Positions 23,004 to 23,434 of a stretch of 64,000 nt of DNA are shown here, one piece after another (position 1 is the stretch's first letter; every line of letters starts with the position of its first letter). Made by a program: the position numbers and the translations under genes. Below the pieces are notes generated by a model that worked only from the letters and a program-made list of their open reading frames with translations, had not been told where the DNA came from and did not search any database. Source of the DNA: Escherichia coli (GTDB lineage Bacteria; Pseudomonadota; Gammaproteobacteria; Enterobacterales; Enterobacteriaceae); the NCBI RefSeq assembly GCF_041886205.1, contig NZ_CP169029.1, one strand, 5' to 3'.

Positions 23004-23434
23004 ATTCTTATCCTTAAAATTAACCACGTAATCAATAAGACTATATGACCTCAAATTGCCTCTAAGATCAAAAGGATTATAACTCTCTATCATGCGCTAG
23101 TCTGTTGACATCTGTAATTTTTACCGATCGCAGTGGGGCGCGACACAATTTAAGCCTGCTTTATTGCCGACTTAAAACAGCGTCCAGTGGGTGTGGTCAT
23201 CAATAGAGTTGGCTCTGCCTTATTTTCTTTGGATTGAGTTTACAGAATAGTAGACACTTCTTTTTAAGGTTTTTAGTTCGCCCCTTCATGTGGAGGCATT
23301 TCACCAGACACAGGTAGTGTTGCAGCGTTGTTAGTGTCGATTGAAGTGGAAGAGGGGCGGCTGCCGGAGTTGCCTTGAGGAGTTGAGCGCGGAATGGCAG
23401 GGGCGAACGCCCCTGCCTGGTGAGAAATGGTGCG

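Follow-up and report, generated by a model that had tools for sequence, protein, structure and literature searches.

What does a G+C-rich palindrome do at the end of a fimbrial operon that is found at this place in only a handful of Escherichia coli strains: is it a mark left by the arrival of the operon, or does it act in the RNA that is transcribed across it? The DNA that we analysed (hereafter the window) is a 64-kb stretch of an E. coli genome, and the palindrome stands between the last gene of a fimbrial islet and yoaC. The first-pass annotation of the window had reported a perfect, GC-rich palindrome within positions 23395-23420, downstream of the stop codon of the tip protein and upstream of yoaC, and its existence and placement proved correct: the sequence GGCAGGGGCGAACGCCCCTGCC occurs once in the 64 kb, at 23396-23417, and the surrounding features are as follows.

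23396-23417, minus strand: stem-loop, GGCAGGGGC-GUUC-GCCCCUGCC, with a stem of 9 bp and a loop of 4 nt
23435-24283, minus strand: adhesin gene of the StfH/YfcO family, the last gene of the operon (RefSeq annotation of the identical region of strain wlxctx60; PF11245)
22704-23003, minus strand: yoaC, which follows the operon in the same orientation and which fimbrial read-through would enter first

The hairpin lies 17 nt past the TAG stop of the adhesin gene (23435-23437, minus strand). As DNA it is a palindrome with two perfect arms of 10 nt and a spacer of 2 nt. As RNA it forms a stem in which 8 of the 9 pairs are G-C, with a predicted energy of -21.6 kcal/mol on the minus strand (z = -4.0 versus dinucleotide shuffles) and of -23.0 kcal/mol on the plus strand (z = -3.9). 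The perfect symmetry of the 10+10 palindrome is incidental, because the tenth "pair" is the product of a substitution in the loop, GAAT to GAAC: the loop reads GAAT, not GAAC as in the window, in the islet copies of strain LHM10-1 and of a metagenome contig, and in K-12. Dinucleotide shuffles of the window yield on average 0.08 perfect stems of 9 bp in which 8 or more pairs are G/C, and one is observed. Perfect 9-bp stems in general (loops of 3-8 nt) give 26 matches in the 64-kb window, representing about 16 distinct hairpins, against 1.6 in the shuffles, so perfect 9-bp hairpins are common and non-random in this genome; further examples lie at 4376-4401, 34402-34426, 58637-58661 and 60517-60542, and most of the window's approximately 16 such hairpins are probably terminators. 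A search of Rfam returned no match at the gathering score for the element (the best overlap was with Clostridiales-2, at 13.9 bits versus 58.6, E = 5.9). On the plus strand, an additional outer helix (AGCGCG/UGCGCU) was predicted to enclose the hairpin; it was set aside, since it is not conserved in K-12.

To say whether the palindrome belongs to the islet or to its edge requires the borders of the islet, which depend on the empty site used for comparison.

23168-30503: fimbrial islet, as delimited by comparison with the empty site of R32_14_1F, a divergent strain
23084-30554: non-homologous block, as delimited against K-12-like empty sites, where it replaces 273 bp
23159-23167, plus strand: CTTTATTGC, left copy of the 9-bp repeat (direct, imperfect) found on either side of the islet
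30504-30512, plus strand: TTTTACTGC, right copy of the same repeat

The true boundary of the islet is therefore at the junction 23167/23168 or 23083/23084, respectively, and the palindrome is located 228 bp (R32_14_1F) or 312 bp (K-12-like empty sites) inside it. The earlier placement "at the islet boundary" was thus right in assigning the palindrome to the islet and imprecise as to the boundary. The palindrome is also absent from the yoaC-yoaB intervals of islet-free strains, both R32_14_1F and the K-12-like representative; its presence there was what would have refuted the first-pass annotation. In the empty site of R32_14_1F a single TTTTATTGC takes the place of the flanking pair of repeats, which may be a decayed target-site duplication or mere microhomology; on a more speculative reading, the repeats could be the footprint of an unrecognised, transposition-like mechanism by which fimbrial operons are inserted. 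Neither terminal inverted repeats nor ends of insertion sequences were found at the islet borders. R32_14_1F itself is labelled E. coli; its yoaC-yoaB region shares only about 85% identity with the window, its neighbouring genes encode a hypothetical protein and an SMI1/KNR4 protein instead of yoaH and yoaA, and it looks like a divergent Escherichia lineage.

The islet is rare. The whole segment 23084-23440 is present in 7 of 5,426 complete E. coli genomes, and in nearly all of the 5,426 the match on the yoaC side stops at window position 23083. The palindrome region is 100% identical to that of strain wlxctx60, and one of the matches to the query region among the E. coli genomes is on a record typed as a plasmid. 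The islet carries a seven-gene chaperone-usher operon, a paralogue with about 83% identity of the core operon yfcOPQRSUV, whose native position is between smrB and sixA. In the survey of Wurpel et al. (2013) Yfc is listed as a core-associated fimbria and a copy at the yoa locus is not mentioned; our searches of the literature for a fimbrial islet at yoaB/yoaC gave no result. Native yfcO offers no nucleotide-level match to the N-terminal part of the adhesin gene (window 23790-24175), against about 83% identity over the remainder of the operon; since YfcO-family proteins of E. coli diverge down to about 40% identity, the receptor-binding part of this adhesin is evidently highly diversified. As a separate observation, two pigeon isolates, PT62 and LP5-1, carry a segment with ISApl1, PAP2 and mcr-1.1 in the islet at window position ~23272; this chromosomal colistin resistance is placed between yoaC and the smrB remnant described below, about 125 bp from the palindrome.

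The origin of the palindrome can be read from its immediate surroundings. Between it and the islet boundary, and far from the real smrB, nucleotide alignment to smrB of strains CRE10 and K-12 reveals a fragment of that gene.

23287-23378, plus strand: smrB pseudogene remnant of 92 bp, derived from the 3' end of the gene, comprising codons ~151-183 and the TGA stop and interrupted by a 10-bp deletion

In tblastn comparisons the remnant encodes GSVAALLVSIEVEEGRLPELP, which matches residues 163-183 of SmrB, and, in a different frame, HVEAFHQ, which matches residues 151-157. The whole of window 23287-23440 aligns with the 3' end of native smrB, the intergenic region and the 3' end of yfcO, and the native counterpart of the hairpin is found in the 70-72 bp that separate the convergent smrB and yfcO genes. 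The presence of a smrB fragment inside the islet shows that a yfc-type locus was copied with the end of its neighbour attached. Sequence comparison thus shows that the palindrome is inherited, the islet being a copy of a yfcOPQRSUV-type locus plus its 3' flank, which consists of the hairpin and the terminal ~100 bp of smrB. The hairpins of the window and of the K-12 smrB-yfcO locus are homologous: they share the same 9-bp stem, differ by one base in the loop (GAAT vs GAAC, plus strand), are placed identically with respect to the stop codon of yfcO and are followed by the same antisense-smrB sequence. They differ in context, as the copy in the window belongs to an additional yfc-type operon at an ectopic site, the yoaC-yoaB interval, is accompanied by the 92-bp remnant instead of a complete smrB, is separated from it by a spacer that is 16 bp shorter than at native loci, and has a gene of the same strand (yoaC) downstream rather than the convergent smrB. 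Among the 5,426 E. coli genomes, the element was detected as one copy per genome in 2,007, a second copy being confined to genomes with the islet; because it is single-copy, the idea that it represents a REP/BIME or another dispersed repeat was rejected.

A donor of the islet was sought in contigs. The search of genome contigs with the YfcO-like protein gave one 41%-identical match in a metagenome-assembled genome, which was uninformative, and the search of metagenome contigs with an islet-type 30-mer spanning the 3' arm of the hairpin and the 3' end of yfcO gave one more copy of the islet, in the yoaC context. These contig searches revealed no donor-type locus with an intact smrB, and the native E. 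coli yfc locus is only ~83% identical.

If the palindrome was inherited, the question becomes what it does at the native locus, for which published transcriptomic data from K-12 are available. Supplementary file 1 of Adams et al. 2021 (PMC7815308; eLife 10:e62438) lists a Term-seq 3' end at MG1655 position 2449185 (minus strand) in M63 medium, classed as "primary" for yfcO. According to the register of the 61-nt strings in that table, which we checked on the rows for thrL and sgrS, the RNA ends 6 nt past the stem, GGCAGGGGCAUUCGCCCCUGCC-AUUACC; the end is reported in one of three growth conditions (M63). Supplementary file 2 of the same study lists a bicyclomycin-sensitive region that peaks at 2449036 (minus strand), antisense to smrB and ~149 nt downstream of the mapped yfcO 3' end, with a Rho score of 2.73 (p = 5.8e-7). 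The Rho experiment was carried out in LB with and without bicyclomycin and scored on 800-nt windows, and since the downstream window also spans the start of prmB on the same strand, both the position and the cause of the Rho region are approximate. For the opposite strand, the Term-seq tables list no smrB-sense 3' end at the hairpin.

The sequence next to the stem bears on how such a 3' end could arise. The first 10 nt past the stem read AUUCCGCGCU on the minus strand and UGGUGAGAAA on the plus strand; neither contains a U-run, with 2-3 U per 10 nt and 2 U in the first 8, compared with the approximately 5 or more U in the 8 nt directly after the stem that we take as the canonical U-tract, and a scan with a consensus terminator model found no match at the hairpin. 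The element therefore shares with canonical intrinsic terminators a G+C-rich hairpin, a typical stem and loop size and a position at the end of an operon, and lacks their U-tract on both strands. It is G+C-rich enough and U-poor, and for the latter reason is not a canonical intrinsic terminator; on this point our inspection of both tails and the empty scan agree with the first-pass annotation. What follows the stem on the strand of the operon is of a different kind.

23390-23395, minus strand: AUUCCG, predicted 3' tail of the mature RNA, inferred from the K-12 3' end 6 nt past the stem
23296-23395, minus strand: C-rich, G-poor stretch directly downstream of the hairpin on the operon strand, a candidate Rho-utilisation region

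In the 100 nt past the hairpin on the minus strand, C amounts to 33-45% and G to 15%, giving a C/G ratio of 2.2-3.0, and the native locus of K-12 has the same composition. In the islet, this stretch is largely the smrB remnant read in the antisense direction. The arrangement corresponds to a class described by Dar & Sorek 2018 (PMC6061677), in which Rho-dependent transcripts end just past stable stem-loops that have no U-tract, are followed by an enrichment of C over G and by rut sites, and guard the RNA against PNPase and RNase II. Like the members of that class, the element of the window is a stable stem-loop near a stop codon, with neither a U-tract downstream nor an A-tract upstream and with C exceeding G beyond it, and its K-12 counterpart in addition exhibits a precise 3' end past the stem and bicyclomycin-sensitive read-through. 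It differs in that the rut-like region of the islet is an antisense fragment of a pseudogene that came along with the operon. We regard the element as most probably a member of this class of terminal stem-loops without U-tract.

On these grounds we propose, with moderate confidence, that the palindrome encodes a protective stem-loop that defines the 3' end of the mRNA of a Rho-terminated, yfc-type operon, and that the islet copy would behave like its K-12 counterpart with respect to both the 3' end and the dependence on Rho. According to this scenario, RNA polymerase would pass through the hairpin, which in the absence of a U-tract should by itself release the transcript inefficiently. Rho would then load on the untranslated, C-rich and G-poor RNA just downstream, which in the islet is the smrB remnant in antisense orientation, and would terminate transcription within the next 100-200 nt, ahead of yoaC on the same strand. 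Exonucleases acting in the 3'-to-5' direction would subsequently trim the RNA back to the stable hairpin, which would thereby set and shield the mature 3' end, predicted near window position 23390. The functions offered by the first-pass annotation, a Rho-independent pause site or a protein-binding site, are not the best supported ones, as the K-12 3' end and the Rho-sensitive region downstream of it favour a protective stem-loop.

The most serious competitor is a non-canonical intrinsic terminator, in which the hairpin itself, either factor-independently or with the assistance of NusA/NusG, releases the polymerase despite the weak U content, and which at the native locus could serve both directions, for yfcO and for smrB. 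The strong, G+C-rich stem 15-17 nt past the stop codon would suit such a role, the K-12 3' end 6 nt past the stem falls within the range of distances seen in intrinsic terminators, and a place between convergent genes is the usual one for bidirectional terminators. However, the tails contain only 2-3 U per 10 nt on either strand and are not recognised by the consensus scan, the bidirectional variant is at odds with the missing smrB-sense 3' end in the Term-seq tables, and the Rho-sensitive region downstream on the yfcO strand implies that the hairpin is read through. We consider this alternative unlikely.

The second competitor concerns the present rather than the past of the element: the hairpin may have been carried along with the copied locus as a functionless passenger and be inactive in a decaying, silent operon. 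The state of the operon lends this idea some credit. In the window, the usher gene (26591-29236, minus strand) contains a premature stop at codon 56 (window 29069-29071), with RFSS*GYVEPG in place of the RFSSQGYVEPG of wlxctx60 and CRE10, so this strain probably has a non-functional fimbrial operon, little of whose transcription may reach the end, and the hairpin may at present be idle. The usher of wlxctx60, an otherwise 99.97%-identical strain, retains the glutamine codon and lacks an in-frame segment of 111 bp (window 28577-28687), and that of strain MB53 is split by an insertion of ISVsa5; the islet copies have thus been inactivated independently. Operons of the yfc type are moreover described as cryptic (PMC3559732), and the conservation of the stem among the islet copies is no greater than their low divergence predicts. 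On the other hand, the stem is intact in all islet copies seen, including one whose flanks have diverged by ~5%, and any RNA transcribed across the hairpin would be subject to it, even if no fimbriae are produced. Importantly, this alternative addresses the present use of the element and not its identity. We judge it improbable, somewhat more so than intrinsic termination, and retain the protective stem-loop of a Rho-terminated transcript as the preferred explanation.

Variation of the hairpin among strains and related species allows the contribution of structure to be separated, to some extent, from that of sequence. The homologous variants that we compared are the following (left arm, loop, right arm, where the sequence is given).

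K-12, native locus: GGCAGGGGC GAAT GCCCCTGCC
B-3008 and YJ3: GGCAGGGTC AAAT GACCCTGCC, with a compensatory change of a G-C pair to T-A (U-A in the RNA)
CRE10 and O111:H2: stem interrupted by a single G.A mismatch
TUM2820: a mismatch in the plus-strand DNA that corresponds to a G.U wobble in the RNA of the yfcO strand
Pseudocitrobacter corydidari: GGTAGGGTC ATTC GACCCTACC, homologous, with two compensatory pair changes

The two changes in P. corydidari are that of B-3008/YJ3 and, in addition, a change of C-G to U-A; in this species the hairpin also lies 3' of a yfcO-like gene, whose neighbour is a GntR-family gene instead of smrB. Over eight sequences, 97% of the cells in the alignment are paired and both-sided changes occur at 2 pairs; the covariation score was matched by 13 of 500 shuffles, and registers slid along the alignment pair in 36-57% of the cells. 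With the E. coli sequences alone the score is indistinguishable from shuffles (204 of 500), and since the full set contains two events in eight sequences, the support from covariation is thin. The CRE10/O111:H2 type of hairpin is weaker (-15.4 kcal/mol), and 571 genomes fall within the 90-95% identity band to which it belongs; a G.A mismatch in so large a clade of E. coli indicates that the complete 9-bp stem is not under strict selection.

In lineages that lack this hairpin, other stable structures stand at the position after yfcO. In E. coli PT109 and O157:H7, in E. fergusonii, in E. ruysiae and in an unclassified Escherichia it is occupied by a REP/BIME, and strong hairpins unrelated to that of the window follow yfcO or stfH in E. 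coli LR9-2, E. albertii, Salmonella salamae and at an StfH locus. Different terminal hairpins have replaced one another at the smrB-yfcO intergenic position, and the occurrence of REP/BIMEs or other hairpins there implies that what is conserved is a stable terminal structure and not a particular sequence. REPs are known stabilisers of mRNA 3' ends, and the role of those found here is probably equivalent to that of the window hairpin, which differs from them in having no REP consensus and in being single-copy rather than part of a dispersed family. In strain 1332KP of E. coli, an IS421 insertion has cut off part of the left arm of the smrB-yfcO hairpin at the native locus and stands in place of the end of smrB.

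These comparisons also weigh against a site that acts at the level of DNA, either as an operator for a dimeric DNA-binding protein or as a cruciform or recombination site. The perfect dyad symmetry is what one would expect of such a site, and a symmetric double change among the variants preserves the dyad too. Nonetheless, the element lies at the 3' end of the operon, ~6.5 kb from the promoter region, with no regulator gene adjoining; its variants alter the sequence yet keep the pairing, other lineages have unrelated hairpins or REPs at this position, and an RNA 3' end maps directly past the hairpin in K-12. We therefore regard a DNA-level function as very unlikely. The remaining suggestion is that the arrival of the islet left the palindrome behind as a junction scar, an attachment site or what is left of the end of a mobile element. 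It draws on the absence of the palindrome from islet-free yoaC-yoaB intervals and its proximity to one end of the islet, and is refuted by the alignments to native yfc loci, where the counterpart exists with no insertion having taken place. Such counterparts are found in ~2,000 E. coli genomes, and another follows a yfcO-like gene in Pseudocitrobacter. Against a scar there are also the 228-312 bp and the smrB fragment that intervene between the palindrome and the junction, the lack of a partner copy or an inverted repeat at the opposite islet end, and its dissimilarity, as a single-copy element, to REP and IS-end families. Taken as a whole, the first-pass annotation was sound as to the existence of the palindrome, the missing U-tract and the membership in the islet, and not as to the scar or the functions that it offered.

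Taken by itself, the palindrome carries little weight: it is one more terminal stem-loop without U-tract, of a kind already described genome-wide in E. coli, and its K-12 counterpart is present in a published table of 3' ends. It has more value as a marker, since the hairpin and the smrB remnant show that the islet arose by copying of a whole yfc-type locus along with its 3' flank. It also serves as a caution that a palindrome near the end of an islet need not be an insertion scar. For work on this fimbrial islet, the smrB remnant, the refined junctions with the 9-bp repeat and the decay of the operon should be of use. It is tempting to go further and to suppose that the hairpin and the ~100 nt of antisense smrB constitute a portable termination module, made of an exonuclease barrier and a rut region, that was selectively retained when the locus was copied and that shields yoaC; we regard this as a speculation with a rather low chance of being correct, but if it were true, the size of the surviving scrap of smrB would have been set by function and not by chance. 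The islet also offers a natural test case for whether the hairpin-plus-rut arrangement of Rho-dependent 3' ends works in a new chromosomal context.
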